Below, piece after piece: positions 1 through 24,264 of a stretch of 64,000 nt of DNA. The stretch spans positions 53,128-117,127 of the forward strand of contig CAYJKP010000001.1 of NCBI GenBank assembly GCA_964371245.1, in the 5' to 3' direction. The position numbers and the translations under genes are program-made. Origin of the DNA: an uncultured Gammaproteobacteria bacterium. Lineage in GTDB: Bacteria > Patescibacteriota > Patescibacteriia > JAHIZJ01. Under the pieces are notes generated by a model. That model was not told the DNA's origin, did not search any database, and saw nothing but the letters and a program-made list of their open reading frames with translations. Position 1 is the first letter of the stretch. Each line of letters starts with the position of its first letter.

Positions 1-57
1 AGCCGACCTTGTTGGTATCAGGGTCGTTCTCTGGCGGATCGTGGTGTTGGCAGCGAA

Positions 58-261
58 TCAGATGCTGTTCGTATCGTTCGGCGCGGATGTCGCGGCCGCA
101 ATGATCACGGGGGATGCAACACGTCGGCCACTGACACGTGCCAAGGTCCGGGTGTTGGCAGACATCTGAATCGCTGGTGCCCAAATCCAACCTCCGTGTT
201 TCTGGATAGGATCCATGTACGTGAACGGGAAAAACGCATGTAACGAGCAGTATATAAACAA
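58..261 (-). CDS. small hypothetical protein (GC-rich patch at window edge)
   Basis: ORF on the minus strand. Its third-codon positions are visibly more G/C-biased than the overlapping plus-strand frame, as in the neighbouring GC-rich gene. No recognisable motif. Confidence 0.2.
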   Translation of the reverse strand: MFIYCSLHAFFPFTYMDPIQKHGGWIWAPAIQMSANTRTLARVSGRRVASPVIIAAATSAPNDTNSI

Positions 262-354
262 TCAGATGCCACAGGCAAATGTGATGAAATATGAGGAAAA
301 TAGAGGTAAAATATATATTTTGGCTAATATTAAGAAAGTACCAGCTTTTAGGTC

Positions 355-383
355 TTGACAATAGCGACAAAATGCGCTATTAT
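355..383 (+). promoter_or_regulatory. sigma70-like promoter TTGACA-N17-TATTAT
   Basis: TTGACA at 355-360, a 17-nt spacer, and TATTAT at 378-383, within an AT-rich spacer upstream of the GC-rich gene at 648. Confidence 0.5.
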
Positions 384-647
384 GCCTAGTTATTAGATGG
401 AGAGGGGTCTTTTCATGGAGTAATTAGAGCGCTGGGTTGTACTGGATAACGGGTATCCAATGTATCCCAGCGCTTTGATTCATCTAGAATCAAGGAGCAA
501 TCAACCGCGCGATGTCTTCATTGCGCATGCACCTTCCACTATAAAAACCCAGTTATTTCACCGCTTCACGAGAAGCATCTACCATACAGGAATGTCACGG
601 CTTTCGAGCCACGGTCCAACCACGGATACGAAACAGGGGGTGTTCAG

Positions 648-1238
648 ATGCCACAGATTTCGTCAAAGGGAATCGTCCAGGGTAACTTTCCGCTGGAAGA
701 GGTGTGGGTGAGGTTCTACACGCGCGCTCCGGAGGGGACGGCCATTCGCGACGGTCAGTACGACGATGCAGTCGCGGCGGCCAGGCACAGGGCTAAGGCC
801 ACCGCTTTGGGAGTCGACTCCGAACGGATGGGGCGCGGCAAGGACGACTCGGGCAGCCAGCTCAAGGATGTCCGGATGACCTCGATCGAGCTGCTCATCG
901 CCGATCTGCGGGGCCTCGGGTACCGCCTGATCGACGCGTTCCAGAAGACGACCCCTCGCGCGGGCGGCGGTCCGGACATGGGCGTGGTCACGTTCGTCTT
1001 CAGCAATGAGGGCGACGAGATCACTCTGTCGCCGGTGGACGCGATCTGGTTCGCGCGTCGGATCACTCTGACGCACGAGAAGGTCACGATCTGGGCCAAC
1101 GCTCAGACTCGGCCTGGCTCGGAGGAGTTTACCTGGCGGCGCGACACCATCAACGCTCGCGGCGCCAGGCCCGATCAGCCGCCCCGCCTCAAGTCGCGGA
1201 TGCTGGCCGTCGGCGAGTACTCGCACGACGAGCAGTAG
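648..1238 (+). CDS. hypothetical protein in a compositionally atypical GC-rich patch
   Basis: 196-aa ORF with strongly G/C-biased third-codon positions. Bounded upstream by an AT-rich promoter region and downstream by hairpin terminators. No recognisable family motif. Confidence 0.6.
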   Translation: MPQISSKGIVQGNFPLEEVWVRFYTRAPEGTAIRDGQYDDAVAAARHRAKATALGVDSERMGRGKDDSGSQLKDVRMTSIELLIADLRGLGYRLIDAFQKTTPRAGGGPDMGVVTFVFSNEGDEITLSPVDAIWFARRITLTHEKVTIWANAQTRPGSEEFTWRRDTINARGARPDQPPRLKSRMLAVGEYSHDEQ

Positions 1239-1309
1239 CCGCGCTACGACTTCAACCCAACTGGGTTTCGCACATCGTAGACCTCGCTAGGTTCTACGCA
1301 ACGCTTCAT

Positions 1310-1352
1310 GGCCGGCCTTCCTTCGGGAATGTGCCGGCCTTCAACTTTTTTA
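1310..1352 (+). terminator. rho-independent terminator (GGCCGGCC...GCCGGCC stem followed by TTTTTT)
   Basis: GC-rich inverted repeat followed by a T-run immediately after the stop codon of the 648..1238 gene. Confidence 0.5.
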
Positions 1353-1362
1353 TAATAATAAC

Positions 1363-1388
1363 GTAGGCGAGCGTTAACGCTCGCCTAC
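1363..1388 (-). terminator. perfect hairpin GTAGGCGAGCG-TTAA-CGCTCGCCTAC between convergent genes
   Basis: 11-bp perfect inverted repeat directly downstream (minus-strand sense) of the truD stop. The U-tract is weak. Confidence 0.4.
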
Positions 1389-1396
1389 GGATGGTA

Positions 1397-2830
1397 TTAT
1401 TCCTCGACCGTGTTTGTTTCGGCCGCTACGCCGCTCAGGTCCAGCCGTGAGAGCATGTATTTGCCGAGCACGTCTTTAACCGGTTTGATCGAGCCGAGGC
1501 CGACGAGTGCCAAAGTATCTTGTTCATCCGTTTTCACCCAGCTCGGCACAGTCTGGCCGGAAACAAGGTCGAAGAAATGCATCAGGAAGGTGGTGGCATA
1601 AACGCCTTTCGGAAGGGTGAAGCTTAGTATCACGCCCTCAGGCGTTATCCGCGAGGCGTGAATATTTGGTTTAATGATTGTAGCCACGTTCCGTTTGGCC
1701 GGTCGGATAAACGGGAAAGGTTTAATATGTTGAAGAAAGTTTTCGGTTTGATCCGCTTGCAAATACGAGGCATACGGTTGGTGGTCGGCCGGGTCAGCGC
1801 TTAACAGCAGGGGCAATGTTTCGGGCAGCGGTTCACCATTTATTGTGGCGTCGGATAGTTTCTTGTTGAAGAGATAGCTGACGTAGGCATAGACCCAGAG
1901 CCGCACATGCTCGGAAATGCACGCCAGCGCGCCGATCGGATCGTCCGGGCGCTGTTTTAGATATTCCAGGACTTTAAGCTCGTTTCGGAACGAATACGGG
2001 AAACGTTGGAATTCGGCCAGCATGGCCCGGCCATTCTCGAACAGTGTCTGGACTTTTTTGCGCACCGCCTGGAAATACGGCGGCTCGGACTCGTTCGTGC
2101 CGGCTAGGTACATCCGCAGCGCTTCAACATATTTCCCTTGCATGACCAGCCGGCCGAATTGATGGACGGAAAAGCGGCTGCCGAATCGCTGGACGCCATA
2201 GTAGTTTAAAAACCCCTTGGTGCGATATTCCTCTAGTCGCTGGTCTAACCATTTTTGCTCGACCGGTTTTTCGGTCCGGACAAAGATGGTGAAACGGTTG
2301 CCGAAGAGTTCACCGACATTAACCACGCCCTTGCCATAGGAAAAGTTCTTCAGGTACAGCCCCGGTATTGAATGGCTGGTCAGTTCTTCGTATTTCACGT
2401 TTCGAAGGCTGATCCGCTGGCTGGTGACGGCAACGGCGTCTTTGATGCCAGCGTGCCCGACCCGTTTTGGCTCCAGCTGCAACGTTTCACACAACCGTTG
2501 GATGGCCTCAAGCGTGAACACGCCGACTTTGATCAAATCAAAAAAAAGCGTTCGTTGATCGGTGGCGTCGGAAGGCGGCGCGGGCGCTTCGGGGATAACC
2601 GTTCTCACCGTCCCGTCGAGCGCCACTTCCTCGACGATAAAATCTTGAAGATAGAGACGATAATAGCCGCGCACGCGATCGGCCGGCAAGGCGGTGATGC
2701 CAATGTGTTCGAGGATGCGCCGGGGATTGAGCTTTTCGTCATATTGAAACCACTCCGGTTTTTCGCGGCGGAGCTGGTCAATGTATTGGCGCTCTTGTTC
2801 CCAGAGTTCGTGGGAAGAGGTATGCGTCAT
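1397..2830 (-). CDS. truD: tRNA pseudouridine(13) synthase TruD family
   Basis: 477 aa. Contains the GIKD-like region and the NYYGVQRFG motif characteristic of TruD/Pus7 pseudouridine synthases. Confidence 0.8.
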   Translation of the reverse strand: MTHTSSHELWEQERQYIDQLRREKPEWFQYDEKLNPRRILEHIGITALPADRVRGYYRLYLQDFIVEEVALDGTVRTVIPEAPAPPSDATDQRTLFFDLIKVGVFTLEAIQRLCETLQLEPKRVGHAGIKDAVAVTSQRISLRNVKYEELTSHSIPGLYLKNFSYGKGVVNVGELFGNRFTIFVRTEKPVEQKWLDQRLEEYRTKGFLNYYGVQRFGSRFSVHQFGRLVMQGKYVEALRMYLAGTNESEPPYFQAVRKKVQTLFENGRAMLAEFQRFPYSFRNELKVLEYLKQRPDDPIGALACISEHVRLWVYAYVSYLFNKKLSDATINGEPLPETLPLLLSADPADHQPYASYLQADQTENFLQHIKPFPFIRPAKRNVATIIKPNIHASRITPEGVILSFTLPKGVYATTFLMHFFDLVSGQTVPSWVKTDEQDTLALVGLGSIKPVKDVLGKYMLSRLDLSGVAAETNTVEE

Positions 2831-2953
2831 ATCAGCTTGAGCGTATAAAGGGCGGGCGGTTTTGTCAAACGTGGCGTTTTGACATGGGTAACAAACGGTG
2901 GTATGACGGCAGTAGTACGGATCGAAGAGCGTCGGCTCGTCGAAGGAGGTGAG

Positions 2954-3133
2954 ATGCGTATGCCCCAGTCATTGATCCAGTTATGGGATGCGACCTGGCA
3001 AATGGTCTGTCACGGGCTGTATGCCGGTTTGATGCTCGGTCTGTTCGTCGCGGCGGTGGCTCTGACAAGCCTCTTGCCGAGCCCACGTCGGTCGGCGAGT
3101 AACGAGGCCTGGCAATGGGATCCGCCGCATTAG
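2954..3133 (+). CDS. small hypothetical membrane protein
   Basis: Short ORF with one hydrophobic helix (LYAGLMLGLFVAAVALTSLL), lying between truD and the uvrA promoter. The start codon is uncertain. Confidence 0.25.
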   Translation: MRMPQSLIQLWDATWQMVCHGLYAGLMLGLFVAAVALTSLLPSPRRSASNEAWQWDPPH

Positions 3134-3220
3134 CGGTGACGGAGAATCATGAAACAAGCGCTCATTCGTGGGTCTTCAAAAGACCCTTTTTGTATACCTG
3201 GACAATCAGGACTTAGGGAC

Positions 3221-3249
3221 TTGTCAGACTTGACAGGCGGGTGTATACT
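3221..3249 (+). promoter_or_regulatory. sigma70-like promoter TTGTCA-N17-TATACT upstream of uvrA
   Basis: TTGTCA at 3221-3226, a 17-nt spacer, and TATACT at 3244-3249. The ATG of the MADKITIKG start lies at 3277. Confidence 0.45.
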
Positions 3250-3276
3250 GTCTCTCAGTTATTTTTCAGAAAGAAT

Positions 3277-6177: not shown

Positions 6178-6249
6178 CGAACGGAAAAGGCGGCGCGAGC
6201 CGTTTTTTGCGTATGTGAAAAGACTTCCGCGTTTCCGCAGAAGTCGGCG

Positions 6250-6693
6250 TTACAGGTACGAGACGGTGGCGACAATGACGCCGAGCAGCAGACCCGCAAT
6301 GACCTGCGGGTAGGTGTGCCCGAGCAGTGTTTTCATGGTTTGTGGGCGGTAATCGGCACGGAGCAGGTGTTGGAGATCCAGCACAAGCTGATTGAGGAGC
6401 TCGGCTTGTTGGCCAGCCGCTCGGCGAAGGTTTGCCGCGTCGTACATGACGATGTAACTGAAGACAACGGTCATGGCGAAAAACGTGCTGCCCCAGCCCA
6501 GGTCATGGCCGACACAGATGGTCAGCGCCGAAACGGCGGTCGTGTGTGCGGAGGGCATGCCGCCGGTATCGAGTAGCTTTGTCAGGTCCCAGCGGTGTTC
6601 GGTGGAAAGGCAGAGGACGACCTTCAGGCATTGCGCGGCCAGGCTGGCGATTGCGACTGTCAAAAGAACGTGGTTGTGAAATAGTTCACCCAT
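6250..6693 (-). CDS. DUF212 / acid phosphatase-vanadium haloperoxidase-related membrane protein
   Basis: GGMPSAHT motif (GGMPSSHS-like, typical of the DUF212/PAP2-related family) plus several hydrophobic helices. Confidence 0.55.
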   Translation of the reverse strand: MGELFHNHVLLTVAIASLAAQCLKVVLCLSTEHRWDLTKLLDTGGMPSAHTTAVSALTICVGHDLGWGSTFFAMTVVFSYIVMYDAANLRRAAGQQAELLNQLVLDLQHLLRADYRPQTMKTLLGHTYPQVIAGLLLGVIVATVSYL

Positions 6694-6887: not shown

Positions 6888-7832
6888 ATGACACCGCCCG
6901 GCGAATTAGCGAAATCAATCTTGTCTGAACTGGCGTATTTTGATATTTTTGAGCATCCGTTAACGCCGATCGAACTCTGGCGGTATGCCAGCCCACGGAC
7001 GGCTACTCTCGCCGAGGTTATCACCGAACTTGCGCAAAGCGATTGGTTACGCGAACGAATTGATCAGAAATGGGGTATGTATTTCCTGCGCGGCCGCGAT
7101 CATGTCGTCGAGCTCCGCATGGTTCGGTACCGCGAGTCTGAAGCAAAGTATTTGAAAGCGCTGCGTTTTGCCAATCGCCTGGCGACCTTTCCGTTCATTC
7201 GGATGATTGCCGTCTGCAACTCGTTGGCGTACAGCAATTCTCGCTCCGACGGGGACATTGATCTGTTTTTTATCGCTGCGCCCGGTCGGATCTGGACCAC
7301 CCGGTGGCACGTGACCGGCTATCTGAAAGTGTTGGGCGAACGACCGACACGCCAGGTGACGCGGGACAAGATTTGCGCCAGTTTCTTTATCGCGCCGGAA
7401 GCGTTTGATCTTCGAACCATGAAAATATCCCGGTCCGATATCTATCTGGCACATTGGGTCAAGCAACTTGTGCCGATTTACGATTCAGCTGATTGGTACG
7501 AAAAATTCATGGCGGCAAACGTCTGGGTGGAGGAGTATTTTCCGCACGGCTATCCAATCCAGCCAGCCCTGACGCGCCGCATCGCTTCGTCTCGCGCACG
7601 TGTGGCGATGCAAAAAACATTTGAAACCGTCTATCGAGGCGTGGTCGGTGATGCGTTTGAGAAAATGTATGAGCGGATCCAGCGCCGCCTGTTGCCGAAC
7701 GATCTTCGCCGCTTGGCCGGTCAAGACACGCGCGTGGTGATGACGCCGACGATGCTGAAATTTCACGAAAACGACCGGCGCGCCAGGTACCAAGAACGCT
7801 GGCTTGAGAAATGCAAGGAGTTGGGCGTATGA
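6888..7832 (+). CDS. hypothetical protein with minimal nucleotidyltransferase-fold motif
   Basis: SNSRSDGDIDLFFI fits the hG[GS]...D.D NTase signature. Overlaps the downstream ligase-like gene by 22 nt. Confidence 0.45.
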   Translation: MTPPGELAKSILSELAYFDIFEHPLTPIELWRYASPRTATLAEVITELAQSDWLRERIDQKWGMYFLRGRDHVVELRMVRYRESEAKYLKALRFANRLATFPFIRMIAVCNSLAYSNSRSDGDIDLFFIAAPGRIWTTRWHVTGYLKVLGERPTRQVTRDKICASFFIAPEAFDLRTMKISRSDIYLAHWVKQLVPIYDSADWYEKFMAANVWVEEYFPHGYPIQPALTRRIASSRARVAMQKTFETVYRGVVGDAFEKMYERIQRRLLPNDLRRLAGQDTRVVMTPTMLKFHENDRRARYQERWLEKCKELGV

Positions 7833-9223
7833 AAAAACTTTGGCACCATCTGCCGGCCGTTGGGCTCTACCTCTACGTCTTTCTTTTGCCGTGGCAGACG
7901 CGGCTGATTGTCCGGCAAGGATATCTAAATGGTGGAAATTGGGAATATGGTTCAGCCAGTTTATACGGCACCGAAATTCTCCTGCTGGCGGTGGTCATCG
8001 TCGAGTTGTTTCACCGGCGGAAAAAAGCATCGGCCAAGCGGCTTGGGTATGATATTGCGCTGATTGCTTTCTTGGTGATCGCCGGACTGTCATTTCTCTT
8101 TTCGATAAAACAGGAACTGACCCTGGCAGCGTTGATCAAGCTGCTCGAAGGTATTTGTCTGATTTGGCTCGTTACCCGAATTCCGTTTTCCTGGCGCTGG
8201 CTGGCGCAGTCCTGGGTGGCCGGGGCGCTTGTGCAGGCTGGTTTCGGTATCTGGCAATTCTTTAGCCAGCAGACGATCGTCAATAAATGGCTTGGCTTGG
8301 CCGCTCATGATCCAGCTCAGCTCGGCACGTTTGTGATTGAAACCGGCGGTGAACGGTTTTTGCGGGCCTATGGCGCGCTTCCGCATCCGAATATGCTCGC
8401 CGCCTGGTTGGGGTTGGCGATATTTCTCATTTTTGGTCTGTATTTTGACCTCTATCGGCGGATCTACCACTGGTTTGCCGCACTCCACCCGTCTCAACAA
8501 AAGAAATTCTGGTCGGCGACCGGCAATCAAGCGATCAAATTCTCGCTCGAAATTATCTGGTATCTTGTTTGCCTGGGCGTGTTGACGATTGGCTTACTGC
8601 TGACGTTTTCACGCGGGGCGTGGCTCGCCTGCCTGATCGGTATTGGCGTGATGGCGATTATCACTGTCGTAAAGAATGACGCAAAAAAATTCTTAGCGCT
8701 AGTCAAACTCGTCATTGTCATCGGCGTCGTGGCCGCGGCGACCGTGGCCATTATGCCACAGCCGTTTTTCACGCGCTTCCAGCCCGAGAGCCGGCTTGAA
8801 AAGATTTCGATCGATACGCGGCTGACCTATCAAGACCAAGCCCTGACCCTGCTAAAAAAATATTGGATCGTCGGCACCGGCCTGGGGACGTACACCCAGG
8901 CGGTCCACGACAAAATAGACAACAGTCTCAAGACCTGGGATTACCAGCCGGTGCATAATATCTATTTATTGATCGCCGTCGAGACAAGCGTTATCGGATT
9001 GATTGTTTTCGGCTTTTTACTCTTTGAGGTCTTTCGTGAAACCGTGCGGCGGCTGAAAAAAAGCAAGGTCATTGATCGCTGGCTTGTTGTGATCATCGGA
9101 CAAATCGTGTTTGTGGTCGTGATGGGCTGGGTTGACCATTTTTGGTGGACACTGGCCTTTGGCGTCTGGGCCTGGTGGCTGATCTTCGGTTTGTGGCGGA
9201 GAGAAGTAGCCGTAAAGCAATAA
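7811..9223 (+). CDS. O-antigen ligase (Wzy_C)-like polytopic membrane protein
   Basis: Multi-TM protein with the LLTFSRGAWLACLIG motif typical of the O-antigen ligase / Wzy_C family. Confidence 0.55.
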   Translation: MQGVGRMKKLWHHLPAVGLYLYVFLLPWQTRLIVRQGYLNGGNWEYGSASLYGTEILLLAVVIVELFHRRKKASAKRLGYDIALIAFLVIAGLSFLFSIKQELTLAALIKLLEGICLIWLVTRIPFSWRWLAQSWVAGALVQAGFGIWQFFSQQTIVNKWLGLAAHDPAQLGTFVIETGGERFLRAYGALPHPNMLAAWLGLAIFLIFGLYFDLYRRIYHWFAALHPSQQKKFWSATGNQAIKFSLEIIWYLVCLGVLTIGLLLTFSRGAWLACLIGIGVMAIITVVKNDAKKFLALVKLVIVIGVVAAATVAIMPQPFFTRFQPESRLEKISIDTRLTYQDQALTLLKKYWIVGTGLGTYTQAVHDKIDNSLKTWDYQPVHNIYLLIAVETSVIGLIVFGFLLFEVFRETVRRLKKSKVIDRWLVVIIGQIVFVVVMGWVDHFWWTLAFGVWAWWLIFGLWRREVAVKQ

Positions 9224-14933: not shown

Positions 14934-15125
14934 CATTCTCCGCTCGGGTACGACGACGCGCTCGAGTGGGGCAGGCTTGGTAGTCAGCAACAACACGGCT
15001 CACAACAACCGGAAAGGAGGTCTACATGACAACATGGCAAAAGATGCCATACTAGATGCGATCGATCCAGGTAGCAGTATCGTACCGTCGATATCGTGTC
15101 TAAGCCAGCAAGGGGGATGTTGAAC

Positions 15126-15473
15126 ATGAAGCGTCGGGTTGCCACGCGCGCTGCTACGGTTCCTCGGAACGTATTGGTGCGCCGAGTCGTCATGCCTGTG
15201 TTCGACCGCGGCCTCGGAAACGTTCTGCCGTTTGTTCACGGCGGGCCAATCCACGGATGCATCTGCCATCGGACGCGTTCCAATGCGATCATTCTGGAGA
15301 CGTCCGATAACCCGGTCAGGGTCAACGGCGAGATCGTCCAGCCGCACATGCGCAGCCGGGTCCCTTCTGGGGCCAGTGTCGTCATCGGTGGCAGGCATGG
15401 TGAGCTTAGGCTCGAACTCGTTGAGATCAGCGAGCCCGATCGCCCAATGAAGCAGACCGCGCAAGCGGTCTAG
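15126..15473 (+). CDS. small FHA-domain-like protein in a GC-rich patch
   Basis: RBS (AAGGGGGA) 9 nt upstream of the ATG. SNAIILETSDNPVRVNGEIV...SGASVVIGG resembles the FHA core (HAxI...LxDLxSxNGTxVNG...GDxIxIG). Confidence 0.4.
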   Translation: MKRRVATRAATVPRNVLVRRVVMPVFDRGLGNVLPFVHGGPIHGCICHRTRSNAIILETSDNPVRVNGEIVQPHMRSRVPSGASVVIGGRHGELRLELVEISEPDRPMKQTAQAV

Positions 15474-15612
15474 ATCGTACGCGCCTTCCGTTCGCGGAAG
15501 AATTGCGCCAGCCCCAGACGAGAAATCAATCTCGACCGGGGCGTTTTATTTTAATGAAAATGACGATTAGAAGGGGCATTGACAAGCTATTTTCTTCAGG
15601 GTAACCTCCAAA

Positions 15613-15972
15613 ATGACCGGCTACAAAGGCATTGTTTGTGAAGGCAGAGACGCGATTGGCAGCACAACCACGGGAGGTTCTTCTATGGGCGGTGGTCACA
15701 GGTCGAAGCAGAAGCACAGCGGAAACGGTAAGTCGGGCACCGACGGCTCTTTGGTTATCAAGCTCTGCACGGGCGTGTGCATCGATCCCCGGCGCGGTAA
15801 CGCGCCAGGCAACATCAGGGTCCATCCGACCGGCGATGGTCTCAGGCTGAATAATCACGGTGGCACAGTCATCGCCGCTGGCCGGCAGCTCCAGGCGTAC
15901 GAGGCGGTGGATCTCAAGCCCGGCGATCGCGTCTCGATCAACGGCACCAACGGCCGGGTTGTGCGCGAATAG
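15613..15972 (+). CDS. Gly-rich hypothetical protein in a GC-rich patch
   Basis: 119-aa ORF with G/C-biased codons and a TTGACA-like -35 upstream. No family assignment. Confidence 0.35.
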   Translation: MTGYKGIVCEGRDAIGSTTTGGSSMGGGHRSKQKHSGNGKSGTDGSLVIKLCTGVCIDPRRGNAPGNIRVHPTGDGLRLNNHGGTVIAAGRQLQAYEAVDLKPGDRVSINGTNGRVVRE

Positions 15973-16067
15973 CACTCCCGTCAAGTTCAATGGTAATTCT
16001 CTCCCTCCGGCGTGCCGGCGGGAGTCTTTATTTCCTAGCCAATTTCAGTTATAGTAAGGGCAGTTTT

Positions 16068-16157
16068 GGAGAGGTCGCATAGTGGTCGAGTGCGCTTGCT
16101 TGGAAAGCAAGTAAGGGTGAAAGCCCTTCGAGGGTTCGAATCCCTCCCTCTCCGCCA
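16068..16157 (+). tRNA. tRNA-Ser (anticodon GGA), type II, CCA encoded
   Basis: Cloverleaf deduced by hand: acceptor GGAGAGG/CCTCTCC, anticodon stem CTTGC/GCAAG, loop TTGGAAA, long variable arm, T-loop TTCGAAT, discriminator G plus CCA. Confidence 0.9.
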
Positions 16158-16356
16158 ACGCTGGAGCGAAGCGGAAGCGAATCTGAAATATTAACAGGGA
16201 TTCGAAGGGCAGAAGCGACCCAGCACCGAAGCGAAGTGCCTAGTGCTGGGGAGCGCCGATCGCTCCGAGCTAGCGTAGGAGCGAGCGCTGCCCCGGACAT
16301 AAATCCCTCCCTCCTAGCAAGCTTAGTGAATAATTACGTAACCACGGAGTAAAAAA

Positions 16357-16842
16357 ATGACCGATCAAACAATCAAATCAACCGGCTGTTGCGAGCCGTT
16401 TAACCCCGAACCGTGGCAGGACAAAGAAATTGCCTGGCAGGATAAAATGTTTGTGAAAGACCGCATCACCAGCATTTTTCATATTCCGGTCAACATGGGA
16501 AAAAAGGTAGTCAAGAATATGGCGCTAATTGAAAAGGCAACAGCTAAGGCGCCCCAGCAATTAATGCTGACTGATGAAAAATCGATGTGGGGATCGGACA
16601 TCTATATTGATGTTTCAAAGGAAGTCCCGGGCGCGCAGATGGCCGCGCTGTCAGGCACGTTCCTCACGAAAGTTTTTGAGGGGCCGTATCAAAGAGCCGG
16701 CCAGTGGGCGAAAGAAATGGAAGCGTATGTGGCAAACAAAGGAAGGAAGATAAAAAAACTATATTTTTCTTACACCACGTGTCCAAAGTGCGCCAAGGCC
16801 TACGGAAAAAATTACGTGGTGCTTTTTGCGCAAATAAATTAA
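16357..16842 (+). CDS. hypothetical protein with N-terminal CC and C-terminal CPKC motifs
   Basis: 161-aa ORF with good coding bias. No family recognised. Confidence 0.5.
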   Translation: MTDQTIKSTGCCEPFNPEPWQDKEIAWQDKMFVKDRITSIFHIPVNMGKKVVKNMALIEKATAKAPQQLMLTDEKSMWGSDIYIDVSKEVPGAQMAALSGTFLTKVFEGPYQRAGQWAKEMEAYVANKGRKIKKLYFSYTTCPKCAKAYGKNYVVLFAQIN

Positions 16843-16915
16843 AAGTAATTTACCGCTACCTCGTAGTCGGGACATAAAAACCAAAATGGTATAAAAATTT
16901 ATCGGGCCAATCATT

Positions 16916-17317
16916 ATGAACAAAAAAACAGCCCCAAGAGTAATCGGCTACGGTCTATTGCTCTTTATTATTACCATGGTGCTGCTCTTCGTGATGTCGG
17001 TGATTACCGAGTCGGATCAGCCGTTAGACAAATGGTGGGTGAGCGCGGTCATGGCGATTATCATGATGGCTGTTTCGCTCTGGTTTTCTAGAACGCTCCG
17101 GCCAGGCAGTGCCAGCCAGGCGTTTTTATTCGGCGGTGTTTGGGCAATCATGATCGCCGGGCTTCTCCTCGCCATTGCCATCCCGAACGGCACGACCAAT
17201 ATCGTCTTTGGCCAATGGCCGACGTATCTAGTATTTATTGGTGTGGCCGTAGGACCGGTGTTACTGAAACCAAAAGCGACTCCGCCGGTTGTCGGTGAGA
17301 CTCAAAACAAGGTTTAA
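16916..17317 (+). CDS. small polytopic membrane protein, tandem paralog A
   Basis: 133 aa. Shares the IPNG...FGQW..YLVF.G.A.GPVL.KP architecture with the next gene. Confidence 0.6.
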   Translation: MNKKTAPRVIGYGLLLFIITMVLLFVMSVITESDQPLDKWWVSAVMAIIMMAVSLWFSRTLRPGSASQAFLFGGVWAIMIAGLLLAIAIPNGTTNIVFGQWPTYLVFIGVAVGPVLLKPKATPPVVGETQNKV

Positions 17318-17333
17318 TAACTAAGCCAAAAAA

Positions 17334-17741
17334 ATGAAAACCGCTTTTAAAATCGTTGGCTTCGGTTTGCTTTTATGGGTTGTTATTGTCCTCGTGCAAT
17401 TGATCATCTCTGCCATCACCTCATCCTATGAAACCCTCGATACGTGGTGGGCGAACGGCATCGTTGCTGTGTTCATGGCATTCTTTGCCGGAGTATTCTC
17501 GCGTCTGCTTCACGCCGCGAACATGAAACAAGCGTGGATCCATGGAATCGGTTTTGCCAGCGTTTTAGTGGGTATCAGCGCCATCCTGATCATTCCAAAC
17601 GGGGCGAACGCCATGTTTGGCCAGTGGAGCATGTATCTGGTTTTCGTCGGGGCGGCGATCGGGCCGGTACTAATGAAGCCTAACAGAACATTAATGGCAG
17701 GCAAAAACAATAATGACTTCAATGCCGGTAAAAAACAGTAA
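17334..17741 (+). CDS. small polytopic membrane protein, tandem paralog B
   Basis: 135 aa, clearly homologous to the 16916..17317 product. Confidence 0.6.
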   Translation: MKTAFKIVGFGLLLWVVIVLVQLIISAITSSYETLDTWWANGIVAVFMAFFAGVFSRLLHAANMKQAWIHGIGFASVLVGISAILIIPNGANAMFGQWSMYLVFVGAAIGPVLMKPNRTLMAGKNNNDFNAGKKQ

Positions 17742-18714
17742 CAAATCATTCCTCAAACGCTTCTGGTGGTTTGCTATCTTGATTACGGTTTTTATTTTTG
17801 GCGCTGCCTGCACACGGACAAAAACCGGCGATCAACTGGAAAACCAAAACCAGAATTCGACGCCGAGTTCAGTTTCGCCGAGCGGTAATACCTGGCAGGA
17901 TCAGGGCGTGGTAATTCCAGGCCAATTTGCTGACGCGGAAATTGTCGCTCTGGGAAACGGCCGATATCGCCTCTATCATGCCGCTGAACCGGACAGCCCG
18001 GATTTTCAGGGCCAGGTCTACTCGTCAATTTCCTCTGACGGAATGAACTGGGTCAAAGAGGAGGGAATACGGAAAACCCAGGCAGTCTTTTTCGACGTGG
18101 TACAGTTACCTGACGGCCGCTATCGCACTTATTTCCAAAACGCCCAAGCGATAAAAAGCGCAATCTCAGATGATGGACTAACCTGGACTGACGAACCGGG
18201 AATAAGAATTGATAAAAACGAGCCCGGTTATGTCCTGGACAATGTTGGCGCCCAGAGCACCTATCGGCTGCCGGATAACACTTATATTATGGTTTACCGC
18301 GGCATGATTAATCAGCCCTACGAAACTGCTGAAAAAATTCCTAATGCCACCACCCAGATATATTTCTGGGCGGTCTCAGAAGACGGCCTGAACTTCGAAA
18401 AGAAAGGCCTGGCCATTGATTCGAGAAATGAAACTCTTTATGGATTGGCCGACGGCGCCGAATGGGTAAATTGGGATGATGATGAGCTGCGGCTCTATTT
18501 CTGGAGCTATGCCGGGATCTATCACTCCGTTTATGCCAACCACACCTTCTTACGGCCGGTATTTGACTGGACCAATAATAAAGACAGCCGGGTGAAATTC
18601 GCACCTGATCCGCCCTGCGATCCCACGATATTGAAAATCAACAGCCGATGGTACATGTATTACGGCCAGCACTCCCGGGGAATTTATTACGCCACGTACG
18701 GGGGTGAGACATAA
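17713..18714 (+). CDS. secreted BNR/Asp-box repeat (sialidase-fold beta-propeller-like) protein
   Basis: N-terminal hydrophobic anchor and signal. Asp-box-like motifs SSDGMNWV, SDDGLTWT and SEDGLNF. Confidence 0.55.
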   Translation: MTSMPVKNSNKSFLKRFWWFAILITVFIFGAACTRTKTGDQLENQNQNSTPSSVSPSGNTWQDQGVVIPGQFADAEIVALGNGRYRLYHAAEPDSPDFQGQVYSSISSDGMNWVKEEGIRKTQAVFFDVVQLPDGRYRTYFQNAQAIKSAISDDGLTWTDEPGIRIDKNEPGYVLDNVGAQSTYRLPDNTYIMVYRGMINQPYETAEKIPNATTQIYFWAVSEDGLNFEKKGLAIDSRNETLYGLADGAEWVNWDDDELRLYFWSYAGIYHSVYANHTFLRPVFDWTNNKDSRVKFAPDPPCDPTILKINSRWYMYYGQHSRGIYYATYGGET

Positions 18715-18729
18715 TATTTTTGCCAGCTT

Positions 18730-19071
18730 ATGAAGCTCTTCAAAACCACAATTATCTTCCTCTATCTCATTGCGGCTTTTTGGGTAGCGTTCGGCGCGCT
18801 CTGGCTGTTCCGAGAGTCGGATTACCGGTGGTTCTACGCGATCGGGGCGTTTAGCAATGCCATAGTGCTCTCACTTTTGACGTATTTCATGAGCCGCGGC
18901 CGGCGCTGGGCGTATTGGCTGCTGGTTATTCTCTTAGCCGCGAATGTCATCCTGACCATCATGGACCAGGTCGGCTGGTTTGACCTGGCCTATCTCGTGC
19001 CGGCAATCGCGGCGCTGGTTCTTACCATCGGCGCACGGCGGGACATCCTTCATCGAAACGCGCGGATATGA
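18730..19071 (+). CDS. small membrane protein
   Basis: 113 aa with three hydrophobic helices. Confidence 0.45.
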   Translation: MKLFKTTIIFLYLIAAFWVAFGALWLFRESDYRWFYAIGAFSNAIVLSLLTYFMSRGRRWAYWLLVILLAANVILTIMDQVGWFDLAYLVPAIAALVLTIGARRDILHRNARI

Positions 19072-19802
19072 ATGAAGTCGCATACAAAACGTCATTAGCG
19101 GAAATCCGGCGGAGAAAAAAGGCCAGCCTGGTACTGGTCGCGTCCCTCGTTGCCGGATACATCCTGGCCGGGGGCGTCGTCCGGAACATGAGTCCTCGTG
19201 AAGTCTTCGTGAGCGCGCTCGCGATCGGGTGCGTCTTGCTGGCGTTGCGGGCACTGGCACTGATGCCGTTTGCCCGCCTGGCAAAAAGGGTCGTCCAGGC
19301 GACGGACGAATATCTGAAGATGGATTCAACGGTGTATCGGTACGAAGATATGGCGCGTCTGTCGGTGCGGGAGACGAGCCAGGGCACTTTCCGTGATGTT
19401 CGCATCGTGCTGAAGGACCGTCGGAGCGTCGTGGTTGATGCGCTGGACGATTTCCCTGGGTTTCTCAACGGATTGTCAGCTCATGTTGATAAAAAGATCG
19501 TTGCGATATCGCGCGAACCGCTCGATTATGACCACTTTGTATTTTACCCTATTGTCGGGCTGGTAACCGGCGCCCTGGTCACAGGCGTCATTGAGTATGT
19601 TCAAAAACGTGGTGGAAGCGCTGTCACAGTCATCGCGATCATATCGGCTGTCCTTCTCTTTGCGTTAGGCGCATATTTCATCGCCACGCGGCCGCTCTCC
19701 ATGCGCTATGCCGGGAGAACGAGATTGGCTGAAATTCTTTGCGGTGTCATAAGCGTTTGCATTGGTCTGGCTTGGCTTCTCTGGCCCCGGCTTTCTAAAT
19801 AG
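19068..19802 (+). CDS. hypothetical membrane protein
   Basis: 244 aa with N- and C-terminal TM segments. Moderately GC-rich. Confidence 0.5.
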   Translation: MNEVAYKTSLAEIRRRKKASLVLVASLVAGYILAGGVVRNMSPREVFVSALAIGCVLLALRALALMPFARLAKRVVQATDEYLKMDSTVYRYEDMARLSVRETSQGTFRDVRIVLKDRRSVVVDALDDFPGFLNGLSAHVDKKIVAISREPLDYDHFVFYPIVGLVTGALVTGVIEYVQKRGGSAVTVIAIISAVLLFALGAYFIATRPLSMRYAGRTRLAEILCGVISVCIGLAWLLWPRLSK

Positions 19803-19994
19803 GTTTGAGAAAAAAATCTTATGCCGTTGGAGCTGTTGGTCGGCGGCGATGACAAAACCGCCGCGGTCGTTCAGTTTGGATTTTTTTAAATACACGTCGC
19901 CAGGTGCATATAGCCCGAAGAACGGCCATAGGTTTGTCAGCAGAAACAAAAAACCAGCCATCTCCAGCCGGTATTATTATATTTAGGCGATTAA

Positions 19995-20378
19995 TTAGCC
20001 CCTCTCTAATAGATGATTTACCCGTTGGACGAGCTCCGATGGAGTAATCTGGGTTTTAATAACGAAGTCAGCTGCTCCAAATTGCTTGGCCTGTTCCTTC
20101 ATGTTGTTCTTTGCTAAATTGGTCAGGACAATGACCGGAATCTGGCGCGTTGTCGTTCCGCTTTTTAGTTTTTTTAAGACATCTAGACCGCTTTCGCTGA
20201 CGAGAATCAGATCAAGTAGAATGATATCAGGTTTTTCAGTATTAGCTGCGGCTATTCCTTCCGTACCGTTCCGAGCCGAGACTAAACGAAATCCTTCTCG
20301 CTCAAATTTAAAACGATACATCTCGATTTGATCGTGATCGTCCTCAATAAGCACTATTTTAGGCGTTCTTTTCGTCAT
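19995..20378 (-). CDS. single-domain response regulator (CheY-like receiver)
   Basis: 127 aa with IVLIEDD...DIILLDLIL...K receiver-domain motifs. Confidence 0.85.
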   Translation of the reverse strand: MTKRTPKIVLIEDDHDQIEMYRFKFEREGFRLVSARNGTEGIAAANTEKPDIILLDLILVSESGLDVLKKLKSGTTTRQIPVIVLTNLAKNNMKEQAKQFGAADFVIKTQITPSELVQRVNHLLERG

Positions 20379-20411
20379 AGTAATTGGCGTAATGCTCGGC
20401 TTAAGACTTAC

Positions 20412-21602
20412 TTATTTTTTTGAACTTACCGTCTGGGCGATGGGGAGTTTAATATAGAAATTAGAGCCTTTTTGCAACTCACTTTCAGCCCAGACCTTTC
20501 CATGATGACCCTCTATTATTTCTTTTACAATATACAAGCCCAAACCGCTACCGTCCGTATACATGGCCGTGGCGTTATCAGCGCGGGCGAATTTTCGGAA
20601 AAGCTTACCGACTTCATTCTTAGGGATACCGATGCCATTATCGCTGATCGTGACAATCAGGCTGTGACGTTCCGGTTTGAGCGAAACAGTAACGACGCCT
20701 TTTTGTTTCCGGGTAGCTCGCGCCTCTTTGACCATTACAGTGGAAGGCGTGTATTTCAGTGCGTTGCTAATCAGATTATAGACTGCCTGCTCGAGATATT
20801 TTCTATCACCCTGCATGACCGGCAGCGTGTCTGGTTTCTCCCAGTGTAAATTGATCTGCCGCTGCCTTGCTTCCATCAGCGAGTTCGTTACCGCTTCATC
20901 TACCACGTCTTCGAGCTGGATAAACGGCGTACTCGGTCTGATGGAAAATTTATTGCTGTCAAATTCTGAGGCGCAGAGAATATCATTAATGATCATTTCC
21001 AGCTTAATGCTTTTATCCTCTACGCCTTTTAGAAACTCGCGCTGTTTCTTTTTTGACAGATGGTCCATGTCACCTTCAAGCATCATCGAGATGACGCCCT
21101 TGATGACTGATACGGGCGTGCGCAGTTGATGGGAAGCGATATCGAGAAATTCCGACTGCGTTTTAAGCACTTTTTGCAGATGCTTATTTTTTTCGGTAAT
21201 ATCATGCGTCTGCTCCGTTACCTTCTGCTGCAGCGTTTCAGTAAAATCTTTTAAAGCGCTTTTTGCCTTTTTCTCGGAAAAATTGGCTTCGATTATGTTC
21301 TCCGTGCTTTTGTCGAAATAAAAACCATAAACGATTATGAGCACGAACAACGAAATTATCAGTGTTTTTGAAATGGTGCGCTCGATAGCAAAAGAGGTGA
21401 TGACCAGCAGGACAATTAAGATCATGCTGATCAATAGATAACGGGCGAACAAGCATTGATTAAAACGGGATTCGCAGTAGTGGCAGCGTTTCGAGGGTGG
21501 TCCGCCGACGTTTTTGGCCAGCCAGCAGTTGCGATTTACATACTGCGCACCGCCAATACCCTTATTATTAGACGGAATTTGTTGGTCGGTCGGCGCTGGC
21601 AC
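20412..21602 (-). CDS. sensor histidine kinase (HisKA + HATPase_c)
   Basis: H-box SHQLRTPV. N/G boxes NAlKYT and DNGIGIP...GSGLGLYIV. N-terminal TM segments. The start is uncertain; an alternative ATG lies at 21425. Confidence 0.85.
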   Translation of the reverse strand: MPAPTDQQIPSNNKGIGGAQYVNRNCWLAKNVGGPPSKRCHYCESRFNQCLFARYLLISMILIVLLVITSFAIERTISKTLIISLFVLIIVYGFYFDKSTENIIEANFSEKKAKSALKDFTETLQQKVTEQTHDITEKNKHLQKVLKTQSEFLDIASHQLRTPVSVIKGVISMMLEGDMDHLSKKKQREFLKGVEDKSIKLEMIINDILCASEFDSNKFSIRPSTPFIQLEDVVDEAVTNSLMEARQRQINLHWEKPDTLPVMQGDRKYLEQAVYNLISNALKYTPSTVMVKEARATRKQKGVVTVSLKPERHSLIVTISDNGIGIPKNEVGKLFRKFARADNATAMYTDGSGLGLYIVKEIIEGHHGKVWAESELQKGSNFYIKLPIAQTVSSKK

Positions 21603-22032
21603 TGTCTTTTTTTATTAGTTTTTTAAAAAGAACATACATCAGAGCGGCCAGACAGATATTGGCGAAGCTGGCCAAAAGGGTTAGGAACGATACCAGCAAG
21701 TCGAGACCCCAGGCGAATGTACTGTAGGTATCATAATAGAGCAGGCCGAAGGAGAGCAGGAATAGAGCGGCCGTAAATCCATAGACAAACCGCAGTTCTC
21801 CAGGATCTTTGGTCACCGGGGAGACATTCTTTTTTAAAACCTTTTTTGAAAATAAACCGAAGAGTTGGTAAAGAATGTTAAGTTTCATTGAAAAGACGCC
21901 AAAGAAAAATAGCAGGCCGGTTATTAACACTAGCCAGATGTTGTGGATGAGAAAGGCCAGCAAGGCCAAGAAACCGCACGTGGCTCTGAAAAAATTCAAA
22001 GCGCGATTGTCGTAGATTGTGCATTGGGGCAT
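21568..22032 (-). CDS. hypothetical polytopic membrane protein
   Basis: 154 aa with four hydrophobic helices. Overlaps the kinase start. Confidence 0.45.
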   Translation of the reverse strand: MPQCTIYDNRALNFFRATCGFLALLAFLIHNIWLVLITGLLFFFGVFSMKLNILYQLFGLFSKKVLKKNVSPVTKDPGELRFVYGFTAALFLLSFGLLYYDTYSTFAWGLDLLVSFLTLLASFANICLAALMYVLFKKLIKKDSASADRPTNSV

Positions 22033-22090
22033 AGTTTGTTTTGTTTAAAAAATTATCAAAATAACAGATAGGTGGAAGCTAAGAAGCACG

Positions 22091-23446
22091 TCAATGTTTC
22101 AAGCAGTCTTTCACCGCCGCGCAGGCCTGCTGGACGTCACGAAGATCGTTGTAAATGTAAAAGCTCAGGCGGCAGCTGGCGGCCGGATCCAACCCGTAAT
22201 AGTGATGTGCCAGTGTGGCGCAGTGACAACCAGCTCGCGATTCCACGCCGCGCCGGCTTAATTCCTCGGCGATCGTAAACGGACTAATCCTATTATCGGT
22301 AAACGATACCAGCGAAGTTCTTTTTGCCGGATCTTTTGGTCCAAAAATGCGCAGCGAAGGTAATTGTTCCAGCAAATTCAAGCCCTCAGTAATCAACATC
22401 GTCTCGTGGTGTTCGACTCGTTTCATTGTTTCTTCAATATCGGCGGGCCGCAGATCCCTACCCGTCATAAAATATTCGGTTTTTCCTGGATGCAGGGCAA
22501 AGTCTAGCAAAAGGCGCAACGCCTGGGCTGAGATGATTGTTCCTAATATATTTGGCGTACCCGCCGTGAACTTCCAGGGCAGAGAGTTATACTCGACTTT
22601 CTCAGGGCTGACCATGCCCAGCGCAATCATGTCGCCGCCATAAAGAAAGGGCCGCATGGCTTTGAGCAGCTCGGTCCGGCCATAGAGCGCGCCGACTCCG
22701 AATGGCGCTAGCATTTTGTGGAAAGACCAAGCCAAAAAATCTGCCTTGAACTGATCAATATCTACAAACATATTTGGCACAAGTTGCGCGCCGTCGACAA
22801 GCAGGTAAGACTTTTTCTCGTCGCTCGGTTGGATATAACCGCTGGCATCGGCAATCTTCCTCACCTCGGCGAGCGGATTTTTCGTACCTAAGAAGTTAGA
22901 AGCGCCTACGCAACAGACTAGTTTCGTGCGAGAATCAACCAATGATTGTAAATGGCCGAGATCGAGTTCGCCTGTCTCTTTATCGAACTTGGCTAAACGG
23001 CACTCTACGCGGACGCCGAATTTCGGCAATATTTCTTTCGCGAGGCCATACCAGGGAACATAATTGGAGTTATGTTCCATAAAGGTTGTTACGATGTTGT
23101 CTCCATCCTTAAATTCCGTCAGTAGCGAATACATGACCGAATTGATGGCCTCGGTCGTATTGCGATAAAGAATGATGTTTTCTCGAGAGGGAGCGCCAAT
23201 AAATTGGGCGATAGTATCATAAGAAGCTTCAAAACTCTCAGTTATCTGCAGGGAGGCCTGGGATTGACCGCGATGCACGTTGTCGTATTGCGAACTCAGC
23301 TTCTTCAGAAGGTCAAACAACTGCTGCGGGGGTTGAGAGCTGGCGGCGTTATTCGTAAGAATTCGACCGGCTTTGATTGCCGGGAAAAATTTACGGATTT
23401 TTTTTGTGTCAATTGTTGTCATTTCGTTACCTGGGAATTGTTGCAT
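22091..23446 (-). CDS. cysteine desulfurase-like class V aminotransferase (SufS/CsdA family)
   Basis: PLP-lysine region SFHKMLAPFGVGALYG. C-terminal RAGCHCA (RSGHHCA-like) active-site Cys motif. Confidence 0.75.
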   Translation of the reverse strand: MQQFPGNEMTTIDTKKIRKFFPAIKAGRILTNNAASSQPPQQLFDLLKKLSSQYDNVHRGQSQASLQITESFEASYDTIAQFIGAPSRENIILYRNTTEAINSVMYSLLTEFKDGDNIVTTFMEHNSNYVPWYGLAKEILPKFGVRVECRLAKFDKETGELDLGHLQSLVDSRTKLVCCVGASNFLGTKNPLAEVRKIADASGYIQPSDEKKSYLLVDGAQLVPNMFVDIDQFKADFLAWSFHKMLAPFGVGALYGRTELLKAMRPFLYGGDMIALGMVSPEKVEYNSLPWKFTAGTPNILGTIISAQALRLLLDFALHPGKTEYFMTGRDLRPADIEETMKRVEHHETMLITEGLNLLEQLPSLRIFGPKDPAKRTSLVSFTDNRISPFTIAEELSRRGVESRAGCHCATLAHHYYGLDPAASCRLSFYIYNDLRDVQQACAAVKDCLKH

Positions 23447-23604
23447 TACTCATTCGCACCTTATATTTTAGCACATAATGCAATATTTTTCAAGTCGAAA
23501 TGATTAATTCTGTTTGTATTCAATCCTGGCGCATGTATTAGTATAAGTCGGAATAACAAAACGGTGGTCGAAGCGGTTCGACCACCTTATCGTACAAGAG
23601 CGCG

Positions 23605-24138
23605 TTACTTCAGATGCCGGCGCATCGGATGACACAGTCCGAAGACGGCCAGGGGCAGGCTGTACCAGGCACCATCCCCAGCCCGTGAGAGCAGCCAGAA
23701 CCCGACGAAGCCGAGCGGTACCATGCCGTACCAGAACGATCCATGGCGCTGCCAGTAGCTTATCCGGTACCCTTTTCTTCCGAAGAGCGAATAGGCCACC
23801 AGCGACACCAGTCCGACGAGCCACACGATCACGGCCAGGGCGACCGGCACGTGTGCCAGCGACGAATTCTCCTGGCTATGGAGAACCAGGAACCAGCCCC
23901 AGACGAGCATCCAGCAAGTTATTGCGTCCGTGCTGGTGTCGAGATACTTGCCGAACCTGGTCGCGACTTTGAGCCGGCGCGCCAGCCAGCCGTCGATGAC
24001 GTCCGTCAGGCTGGTGCCGAGAAAGAGCCACCAGGCTTCCGTCCAATCCAGCCGATGCATCGCCGCCACACATAGGGCGGCCATGGCCACACGGCTGAGC
24101 GTAATGGCTGTAACCGCCGATAGTGCAACTGCCCGCAT
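23605..24138 (-). CDS. CDP-alcohol phosphatidyltransferase family protein (GC-rich)
   Basis: Exact D-x2-DG-x2-AR-x8-G-x3-D-x3-D motif (DVIDGWLARRLKVATRFGKYLDTSTD). Polytopic membrane protein. Confidence 0.8.
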   Translation of the reverse strand: MRAVALSAVTAITLSRVAMAALCVAAMHRLDWTEAWWLFLGTSLTDVIDGWLARRLKVATRFGKYLDTSTDAITCWMLVWGWFLVLHSQENSSLAHVPVALAVIVWLVGLVSLVAYSLFGRKGYRISYWQRHGSFWYGMVPLGFVGFWLLSRAGDGAWYSLPLAVFGLCHPMRRHLK

Positions 24139-24264
24139 CGGAAACCTCCTCTTCTGTCCGGTTTGCGCACACCTAGTTTCCGCGATACTATAGTACTGGA
24201 TGAGGGGGAGGTCAAGAGGGGGAAGGTGAGTGAATCATAAAGTAACTAGTTATAAATAAAAGAT

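Follow-up and report, generated by a model that had tools for sequence, protein, structure and literature searches.

We examined a 64,000-nt stretch of contig CAYJKP010000001.1 (hereafter the window), in which a few single genes depart sharply in base composition from an otherwise moderate background (Table 1). These are a GC-rich gene of 196 amino acids (aa) between uvrC and truD, a pair of small GC-rich hypothetical genes, genes for a CDP-alcohol phosphatidyltransferase family protein (the CDP gene), a DUF975 membrane protein and a FabH-like condensing enzyme, and an AT-rich cassette carrying a 317-aa gene. The first-pass annotation of this DNA had read such patches as a mosaic left by repeated horizontal acquisition, possibly from a high-GC partner or host organism, or alternatively by assembly chimerism. 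We find the patches to be real, correctly assembled, syntenic in a sister species and conserved there in GC content at third codon positions (GC3), with divergence that is discordant with their surroundings and, for the 196-aa gene, a discordant phylogeny as well.

The window is ordinary chromosome from a bacterium belonging to Patescibacteria (the candidate phyla radiation, or CPR) with a genome of ∼1.2 Mb. It carries housekeeping genes (those for GroES/GroEL, UvrA, TruD, PEP synthase, DnaG, sigma-70, PurD, deoxyhypusine synthase, and similar proteins), and the same proteins occur on a 1.18-Mb contig, in clusters named “Patescibacteria group bacterium”. A scan with one genome per species returned relatives that were all of Patescibacteria type, the best at 79% protein identity, and megablast of positions 1–25000 against E. 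coli genomes and phage records gave no match.

Compositional outliers

GC and GC3 were computed for each gene among the calls supplied with the public contigs, and GC3 was additionally expressed as a z-score, corrected for amino-acid composition through the leave-one-out codon usage of the whole window. Overall GC is 0.507, and the 62 genes have a median GC of 0.514 (robust standard deviation, SD, 0.039) and a median GC3 of 0.579 (robust SD 0.0615). The z-scores have a robust SD of 1.9 instead of 1, so the data are overdispersed; in robust SD units the 196-aa gene deviates by +3.7, DUF975 by +2.9, and the 317-aa gene by −6.4, with weaker deviations for the CDP gene, the FabH-like gene, and the pair at 15126–15972.

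The mosaic is thus genuine and has strong outliers, but it is smaller than had been claimed, and one of its patches is ordinary. Several patches lie beyond the gene-to-gene spread of GC3; the patch at 19068–19802, the gene of a 244-aa membrane protein, lies within it. At the left end, the proposed patch of 1–1240 holds true for the 196-aa gene, while bases 1–500 have a GC of only 0.47. Within 14940–16000, the two plus-strand genes are moderately GC-rich, partly through codon positions 1 and 2. The patch placed at 62500–64000 is a gene at 62647–63762, moderate by GC. The CDP gene was rightly singled out as GC-rich and the gene at 24265–25218 as the opposite extreme; DUF975, a strong outlier in GC3, had been missed. 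The AT-rich spacers that had been taken to bound the patches are not special to them, since low noncoding GC (0.436, versus 0.516 for coding sequence) is general across the window. As for labels, the CDP gene matches its family profile (PF01066, 53 bits against a cut-off of 22), and the “FHA-like” gene at 15126–15473 has no Pfam or NCBIfam match at E ≤ 0.01. Other, smaller GC3-rich genes are an RRM gene (33947–34237), DUF212 (6250–6693), and the gene at 18730–19071.

Two ordinary sources of GC3 variation were considered. GroEL, GroES, PpsA, and rubrerythrin have raised GC3 by loss of T-ending codons only, whereas in the patch genes A-ending and T-ending codons are both depleted; the patches are therefore a compositional shift and not an expression signature of the chaperonin type. 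The hydrophobic composition of membrane proteins was rejected as the main cause: expected GC3 climbs with hydrophobicity (rho 0.58) but spans only 0.54–0.63, and the residual z-score is uncorrelated with hydrophobicity (rho 0.02).

Table 1. Features of the window, with composition and corrected GC3 z-score where available. GC1/2/3, GC at codon positions 1, 2, and 3; T3, T at third codon positions; dS, synonymous divergence from the sister species.
Feature	Position	Strand	GC	GC3	z	Remarks
Promoter-like site TTGACA-17-TATTAT and ∼260-nt leader	355–647 (site 355–383)	+				Upstream of 196-aa gene
196-aa gene	648–1238	+	0.655	0.84	+7.0	Strongest GC-rich patch, strong outlier; GC1/2/3 = 0.63/0.49/0.85
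115-aa hypothetical gene	15126–15473	+	0.62	0.71	+2.2	First of pair; moderate
119-aa Gly-rich hypothetical gene	15613–15972	+	0.61	0.72	+2.7	Second of pair; moderate
tRNA-Ser(GGA)	16068–16157	+				Directly 3′ of the GC-rich pair
Low-dS genes of ordinary composition	16357–16842, 16916–17317, 32396–32800					dS 0.09–0.15
244-aa membrane protein	19068–19802	+	0.554	0.61	+0.09	Ordinary composition
Four-gene block: response regulator, histidine kinase, DUF4395, class-V aminotransferase	19745–23526	−	0.43–0.49			
CDP-alcohol phosphatidyltransferase family gene	23605–24138	−	0.622	0.75–0.77	+3.4	Clear outlier (z for GC3 0.75)
AT-rich cassette	24225–25273	+				Contains 317-aa gene
317-aa gene	24265–25218	+	0.32	0.22	−12.3	Low extreme
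IS200-like Y1 transposase relic	26228–26323	+				Internally deleted; collinear fragments, tblastn E = 6e-7
DUF975 membrane protein	26402–27022	+	0.562	0.78	+5.5	Strong in GC3; T3 0.07; PF06161 match
384-aa protein	27313–28467	−				Signal-like N-terminus, long Asn/Thr repeat, C-terminal membrane anchor
1847-aa alpha-2-macroglobulin-like protein	52256–57799	+				Hint / PT-HINT / Vint (intein-like) domain matches
FabH-like (KAS III-type) condensing enzyme, 371 aa	62647–63762	+	0.595	0.70	+2.9	Moderate; Pfam ACP_syn_III and ACP_syn_III_C

Assembly and comparison with a sister species

ENA contig ERZ13693045 NODE_11 (918 kb, 48x) contains the window at 100% identity, and exact-protein look-ups found 18–23 contigs per gene, from many samples. 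The contigs fetched, which come from separate assemblies of at least 10 other samples, match the window at 99.88–100% identity over every patch junction. As gene order is also kept in a second species, mis-assembly is excluded for practical purposes.

That second species, which we call the sister, was located through a variant of the CDP protein, and is represented by a 364-kb contig (ENA ERZ27247363) together with JGI contigs of metagenome 3300029288, from a landfill leachate well. It is collinear with the window at ∼88–92% nucleotide identity. Across 33 orthologues, synonymous divergence (dS) has a median of 0.41 (interquartile range 0.31–0.54), and GC3 in the window correlates with GC3 in the sister at r = 0.92. 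All GC-rich patch genes occupy the same slot in the sister with similarly raised GC3, so none of them is a recent gain of the window genome.

Against this background, four genes diverge discordantly from their flanks, with sharp borders: the 196-aa, DUF975, and FabH-like genes are unusually different from their sister copies, and the CDP gene is unusually similar. In sliding comparisons the three divergent islands are gene-sized, identity returning to 0.93–1.00 at the gene ends. Three further genes have low dS and ordinary GC3 (Bact_hydrolase, 0.086; hyp134, 0.10; hyp133, 0.15), which suggests, from these alignments, that they too may have been recently exchanged between the two species.

The 196-aa gene in the uvrC–truD slot

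The 196-aa gene is the most striking of the patches, with only 0.036 of its third codon positions being A and 0.117 being T. A word-indexed protein search with its product found only its own cluster, and a scan of JGI metagenomes found no match; the sister copy was reached through the neighboring TruD. A phmmer search of 1.84 billion representative proteins was more productive, yielding 13 relatives, mostly of 185–250 aa, and those with a named source all come from Patescibacteria, Parcubacteria, or Kerfeldbacteria. With two further relatives that could be placed, the order of the slot reads uvrC – x – truD – uvrA – 314-aa gene – Wzy_C – groES – groEL. The gene sits at x, between uvrC and truD–uvrA, in all four genomes (the window, the sister, STA_36, and GCA_016294925.1), and is a GC-rich outlier in each: GC and GC3 are 0.655 and 0.848 in the window (local GC 0.52), 0.670 and 0.876 in the sister (local GC 0.54), 0.638 and 0.842 in STA_36 (local GC 0.478), and 0.602 and 0.700 in GCA_016294925.1 (local GC 0.440). 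Family members also share an amino-acid composition of the kind found with high GC: the GC predicted for the first and second codon positions is 0.47–0.565, exceeding 0.48 in 12 of the 13 aligned family sequences, and the median for the window proteome is 0.462.

Between window and sister, the 196-aa proteins share only 42–45% aa identity, with 0.34 mismatches per site in the DNA and many indels. The flanks differ by 0.04–0.10 mismatches per site, the intergenic stretches to either side of the gene by 0.04–0.09, and the neighboring TruD is 94% identical. The divergence spans the entire coding sequence and all three codon positions, indels included, and the gene is saturated between the available genomes. 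Alleles pair across species: identity is 51% between the window and STA_36 and 60% between the sister and GCA_016294925.1, as compared to 42% between the window and the sister. The quartet (window, STA_36 | sister, GCA_016294925.1) was accordingly recovered for the 196-aa gene in 2000 of 2000 bootstraps, whereas the flanking TruD groups the window with the sister in 1000 of 1000. This is the pattern that allele lineages exchanged across species at a fixed locus would leave; such a conflict between gene tree and flank is documented for this gene alone among the patch genes.

Upstream lies a promoter-like site that matches the consensus at 11 of 12 positions in a promoter scan, its core being kept in all four genomes. 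Identity to the sister is 93–96% over positions 350–550, as against 57–74% within the gene. The leader that follows folds more stably than shuffled sequences (minimum free energy −82.9 kcal/mol, z = −3.3), and matched no Rfam family. An AlphaFold model of the protein, built on the family alignment, has a confidence score (predicted local distance difference test, pLDDT) of 86.6 and no match among solved or viral folds; neither a signal peptide nor a membrane segment was seen in the product.

DUF975, FabH-like, and CDP genes

The DUF975 gene and its sister copy encode proteins with 70% aa identity (dS 1.35, dN/dS 0.15, the latter being the ratio of nonsynonymous to synonymous divergence), and nucleotide identity rises from 0.61–0.73 within the gene to 0.91–0.96 immediately after it. 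The FabH-like gene behaves likewise: it is syntenic with its sister copy at 72% aa identity (dS 1.22, dN/dS 0.18), between flanks that are 0.96–1.00 identical. With dS about three times the median and dN/dS of only 0.15–0.18, both genes represent old divergence under purifying selection.

The FabH-like gene has the second-highest dinucleotide-signature distance in the window. Its called start was confirmed by exact look-up (the longest open reading frame, ORF, would start at 62548). It scores under the cut-offs of the NCBIfam models (NF006829, 234 versus 249; TIGR00747, 185 versus 292), and the motifs AACTS, HQAN, and GNTTSAS that are readable in its translation would correspond to the Cys-His-Asn catalytic triad. 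Its nearest relatives lie at 85–52% identity, where the only named ones are the sister's protein and a copy from Nomurabacteria, and ordinary bacterial FabH begins at about 35–45%. Thus for both the 196-aa and the FabH-like genes, a check of best hits by taxonomy puts the closest named relatives among the Patescibacteria, and no high-GC donor emerges. Close by, one low-coverage strain contig lacks ∼216 bp of 62414–62640, which take in the end of a rhomboid gene along with the spacer that precedes the FabH-like gene. Beyond the window end, at 2.7–7 kb, an M20 peptidase gene is also GC-rich in both species (GC 0.62, GC3 0.74), and PurH has 204 aa as against 535 aa in the sister, and on that account is probably decaying.

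The CDP gene presents the opposite case. Its product is 98.9% identical to that of the sister, with a dS of 0.07 where the median is 0.41, and the segment of about 700 bp that contains it (23550–24150) has 96–99% nucleotide identity and is bounded by two rearrangement breakpoints. The family motif DxxDGxxAR-x8-G-x3-D-x3-D is present (reading DVIDGWLARRLKVATRFGKYLDTSTD), and the substrate-specific NCBIfam models all score far under their cut-offs. In two contigs the gene looks truncated (101 aa), but only the gene calling differs there and the DNA is identical.

Variable loci around the CDP gene and at 15–16 kb

Relative to the sister, a 3.8-kb four-gene block is inserted in the 3′ end of the 244-aa gene; the sister lacks it at this site, and positions 23527–23547 are a relic of the sister-type 3′ end. 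The 244-aa protein itself has 81% aa identity to its sister copy (dS 0.41), the sequences of the 3′ ends differing. The core of the block (aminotransferase, DUF4395, and kinase genes, usually with the response regulator) was present in ∼30 of the 37 Patescibacteria loci fetched. Next to the CDP gene is the AT-rich cassette, found in the same context in independent contigs. Its 317-aa gene retrieved only its own cluster among 5.8 billion proteins, and had no match in Pfam, NCBIfam, PHROGs, or PADLOC, in tblastn searches of phage and plasmid records, or in IMG/VR. Homology with the sister ends just upstream of this gene and restarts exactly at the cupin start codon; in the sister, the place between the CDP and cupin genes is taken by a 220-aa gene that is unrelated but similar in composition (GC 0.31, GC3 0.24). 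By these alignments, positions 24225–25273 are a cassette slot that has been filled independently, in a lineage-specific way, with AT-rich cargo. Neither repeats nor genes for a recombinase were seen. Further on is the decayed IS200-like transposase, whose sister counterpart is intact (184 aa, sister contig 7720–8274, PF01797 match). The inserted block, the cassette slot, and the decayed transposase mark 19.7–27 kb as a rearrangement-prone region.

The GC-rich pair at 15–16 kb has no family match in Pfam, NCBIfam, PHROGs, or PADLOC. Substitutions relative to the sister fall at third positions in 22 of 40 cases for the 115-aa gene (dN/dS 0.34, dS 0.25) and 18 of 30 for the 119-aa gene (dN/dS 0.27). 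With dN/dS of 0.27–0.34, the pair is under relaxed constraint. Coding on the minus strand, where the caller used for the sister placed a 292-aa antisense ORF, was rejected because substitution periodicity favors the plus strand; an antisense ORF of 154 aa over the 115-aa gene has its substitution excess at position 1. Tandem duplication was also rejected, the two genes having no repeats and no mutual similarity. Just beyond, the sister alignment stops precisely where tRNA-Ser(GGA) has its 3′ end, restarting ∼155 bp on (16157–16313), and a small variable spot lies in between.

Two other proteins of the window deserve mention. The 384-aa protein has a 376-aa form on the contig of one sample, with the length difference at 28131–28176, and the 1847-aa alpha-2-macroglobulin-like protein is 95.7% conserved in the sister.

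Origin of the patches

The composition of the window would be accounted for by three layers. The first would be a mild and normal spread of GC3, partly linked to expression (GroEL, GroES, PpsA, rubrerythrin), with depletion of T-ending codons. The second would consist of a few single genes in conserved syntenic slots, each with its own history: the 196-aa, DUF975, and FabH-like genes would be very old alleles between almost identical flanks, and the CDP gene the reverse, a near-identical segment between diverged flanks. Homologous recombination that swaps gene-sized alleles from other lineages of the same clade could produce both patterns. The third layer would be the single nonhomologous cassette slot, where each of the two sister species has an AT-rich gene unrelated to that of the other. 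Of the horizontal acquisition first proposed, exchange as such is supported, in the form of allele replacement within the clade at conserved loci and not of imports, by the gene-sized islands of divergence, the conflicting quartet with its full bootstrap support, and the one near-identical island. We infer recombination-driven allele replacement as the mechanism, and hold with reasonable though far from complete confidence that related Patescibacteria have traded the patch genes, each as an allele of gene size, through homologous recombination. The GC enrichment of the 196-aa gene travels with the gene, which is compatible with a reservoir lineage of higher GC that lies outside the sampled genomes and equally with GC-biased gene conversion at a locus prone to recombination.

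Several points weigh against this reading. The comparison includes one close sister and two more distant genomes, and the high dS of DUF975 and the FabH-like gene could in principle reflect a raised local mutation rate instead. Genes with GC3 ≥ 0.70 are enriched in dS outliers (4 of 8, as compared to 1 of 26 others among 34 orthologues; Fisher p = 0.007), but the thresholds of that test were picked post hoc, with the data already seen. Exchange is not limited to GC-rich genes, given the three genes of ordinary GC3 with low dS, and conversely the pair at 15126–15972 is GC-rich with no divergence anomaly (dS 0.20–0.25) and so is not covered. None of the patches could be traced to a donor genome.

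The strongest competitor is that nothing was transferred, the patch genes being native ones that evolve fast locally and take their composition in place from gene-specific forces, for instance codon choice tied to expression, the amino acids of membrane proteins, or selection acting on the mRNA. GC3 is indeed a stable gene-specific trait, as its correlation with the sister attests; genes of highly expressed types (GroEL, PpsA, RRM) likewise have raised GC3, several patch genes encode membrane proteins, for which expected GC3 is higher, and ahead of the 196-aa gene a strong promoter-like site has been conserved. Yet amino-acid composition moves expected GC3 over a narrow range and leaves no residual trend, and codons ending in A as well as those ending in T are depleted in the patch genes, where chaperonin-type genes lose only the latter. 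Moreover, dS of 1.2–1.35 with dN/dS of 0.15–0.18 denotes divergence that is old and held in check by purifying selection, not rapid adaptation; the 196-aa gene and its flank give conflicting quartets in every bootstrap replicate; and the anomaly of the CDP gene is one of similarity, not of divergence. We consider this alternative unlikely, though it deserves to be taken seriously.

Recent import from a high-GC partner or host, for example an actinobacterial host of an episymbiont, is considerably less probable still. It draws on the composition of the 196-aa gene, which is rich in Gly, Ala, Arg, and Pro and has GC3 > GC1 > GC2, as is typical of ∼65% GC genomes, and on the failure of the word-indexed search to find it a relative. 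But the same gene is syntenic in four Patescibacteria genomes, with TruD identities down to 50%, and its 13 relatives, proteins of ∼185–250 aa or short matches, are from the CPR wherever a source is named. The named closest relatives of the FabH-like protein are Patescibacteria too, and all the GC-rich patches are older than the split from the sister and have kept their GC3; the high-GC donor suggested in the first-pass annotation thus finds no backing. Nor do the patches resemble imports in other respects. Searches returned no identifiable foreign donor taxon for the 196-aa, FabH-like, or AT-rich genes (the CDP gene, DUF975, and the pair were compared with the sister only), and no GC-rich gene is absent from the corresponding site of the sister, as a genomic island would be; only the AT-rich cassette is. 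Patch borders have no flanking repeats, and there is no integrase among the called genes, the sole hints of mobility being the tRNA-Ser beside 15126–15972 and the decayed IS200-like gene beside DUF975. Neither do the patch genes look like defense or phage genes, with nothing found by PADLOC and only weak PHROGs matches to families with no assigned function.

Targeted hypermutation of the divergent genes has very little to recommend it. Diversity-generating retroelements are common in CPR bacteria, and the extreme divergence is restricted to single genes, as such an element might cause. However, no pair of template and variable repeats accompanies the patch genes, the window has no inverted repeats of at least 30 nt, no reverse transcriptase is among the called genes, and the divergence, with its indels and low dN/dS, extends over whole coding sequences and all codon positions. 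Assembly chimerism, by which reads from other organisms would have been merged into the contig, can practically be dismissed: abrupt changes of composition at gene borders would suit it, but the same junctions recur in the assemblies of at least 10 other samples, the same gene order in a sister from landfill metagenomes of another project, and GC skew is positive throughout the window with no inversion.

Relation to known systems and significance

In the Lawrence–Ochman amelioration framework, compositionally atypical genes and islands are signatures of transfer that drift toward the composition of their host. The present window resembles such islands in having single genes that lie 3–6 robust SD off the backbone in GC or GC3, and a lineage-specific AT-rich cassette with no detectable relatives. 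It differs in that the GC-rich genes occupy conserved slots and come with no integrase, flanking repeats, or att-like sites. These genes are not, moreover, ameliorating to host composition, for the deviation is kept where TruD is only 50% identical.

The capsule, O-antigen, and surface-protein loci of pathogens are hypervariable and are replaced by recombination within conserved flanks. Here too, near-identical flanks enclose very old, deeply diverged alleles whose lineages cross species boundaries, but the units are single small genes. The 196-aa product shows no signal peptide, membrane segment, or known function that would point to a selective agent, be it immunity or phage pressure.

Most transfers detected in Patescibacteria are reported to come from other Patescibacteria (Gios et al. 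2025, PMC12455944), and the clade-internal exchange described here agrees with that finding: the partners indicated by phylogeny are Patescibacteria, and an IS200-like transposase relic lies beside one patch. Where that study deals with islands, transferred genes, and prophages, however, the main signal in the window is homologous allele replacement at fixed loci. Lassalle et al. (2015, PMC4450053) reported that across bacteria the GC content of genes is positively related to recombination, and saw the cause in biased gene conversion. In keeping with this, signs of recombination or allele replacement are more frequent among the highest-GC3 genes of the window, and the GC excess of these genes is of another kind than the codon choice of highly expressed ones; but the published effect is a statistical shift over many genes, and here one gene stands 13–16 GC points above its genome. 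That the patch genes are targets of GC-biased gene conversion is offered as a hypothesis.

The phenomenon is thus of a known kind and the example a fresh one, of moderate interest for joining a syntenic gene that stays GC-rich despite allele exchange with a predicted fold that has no known relative. More speculatively, and we would not count it as likely, the 196-aa family may be CPR-restricted with an unseen fold and lie behind a strong, conserved promoter, the uvrC–truD slot may be a long-lived recombination hot spot, and repeated exchange together with GC-biased gene conversion may have driven GC3 to 0.70–0.88 in genomes of 44–54% GC and may hold it there. If true, this would be an unusually clean natural case, confined to one locus, of biased gene conversion acting on ultra-small bacterial genomes; and if the GC excess is driven by recombination, the uvrC–truD locus would be a convenient test case for the evolution of base composition.

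The locus also flags an uncharacterized protein family with a confidently predicted structure and no known fold relative. The window as a whole supplies loci at which gene flow among related Patescibacteria may be measured, namely three deep allele swaps, one very recent exchange, and one cassette slot. For genome scans it carries a caution, in that a gene of 65% GC in a genome of 51% GC, for all its likeness to a late arrival from some GC-rich host, proves to be an old, syntenic resident of its clade. Composition alone would mislead inference of donors and hosts in candidate-phyla bacteria, where host prediction is much wanted.

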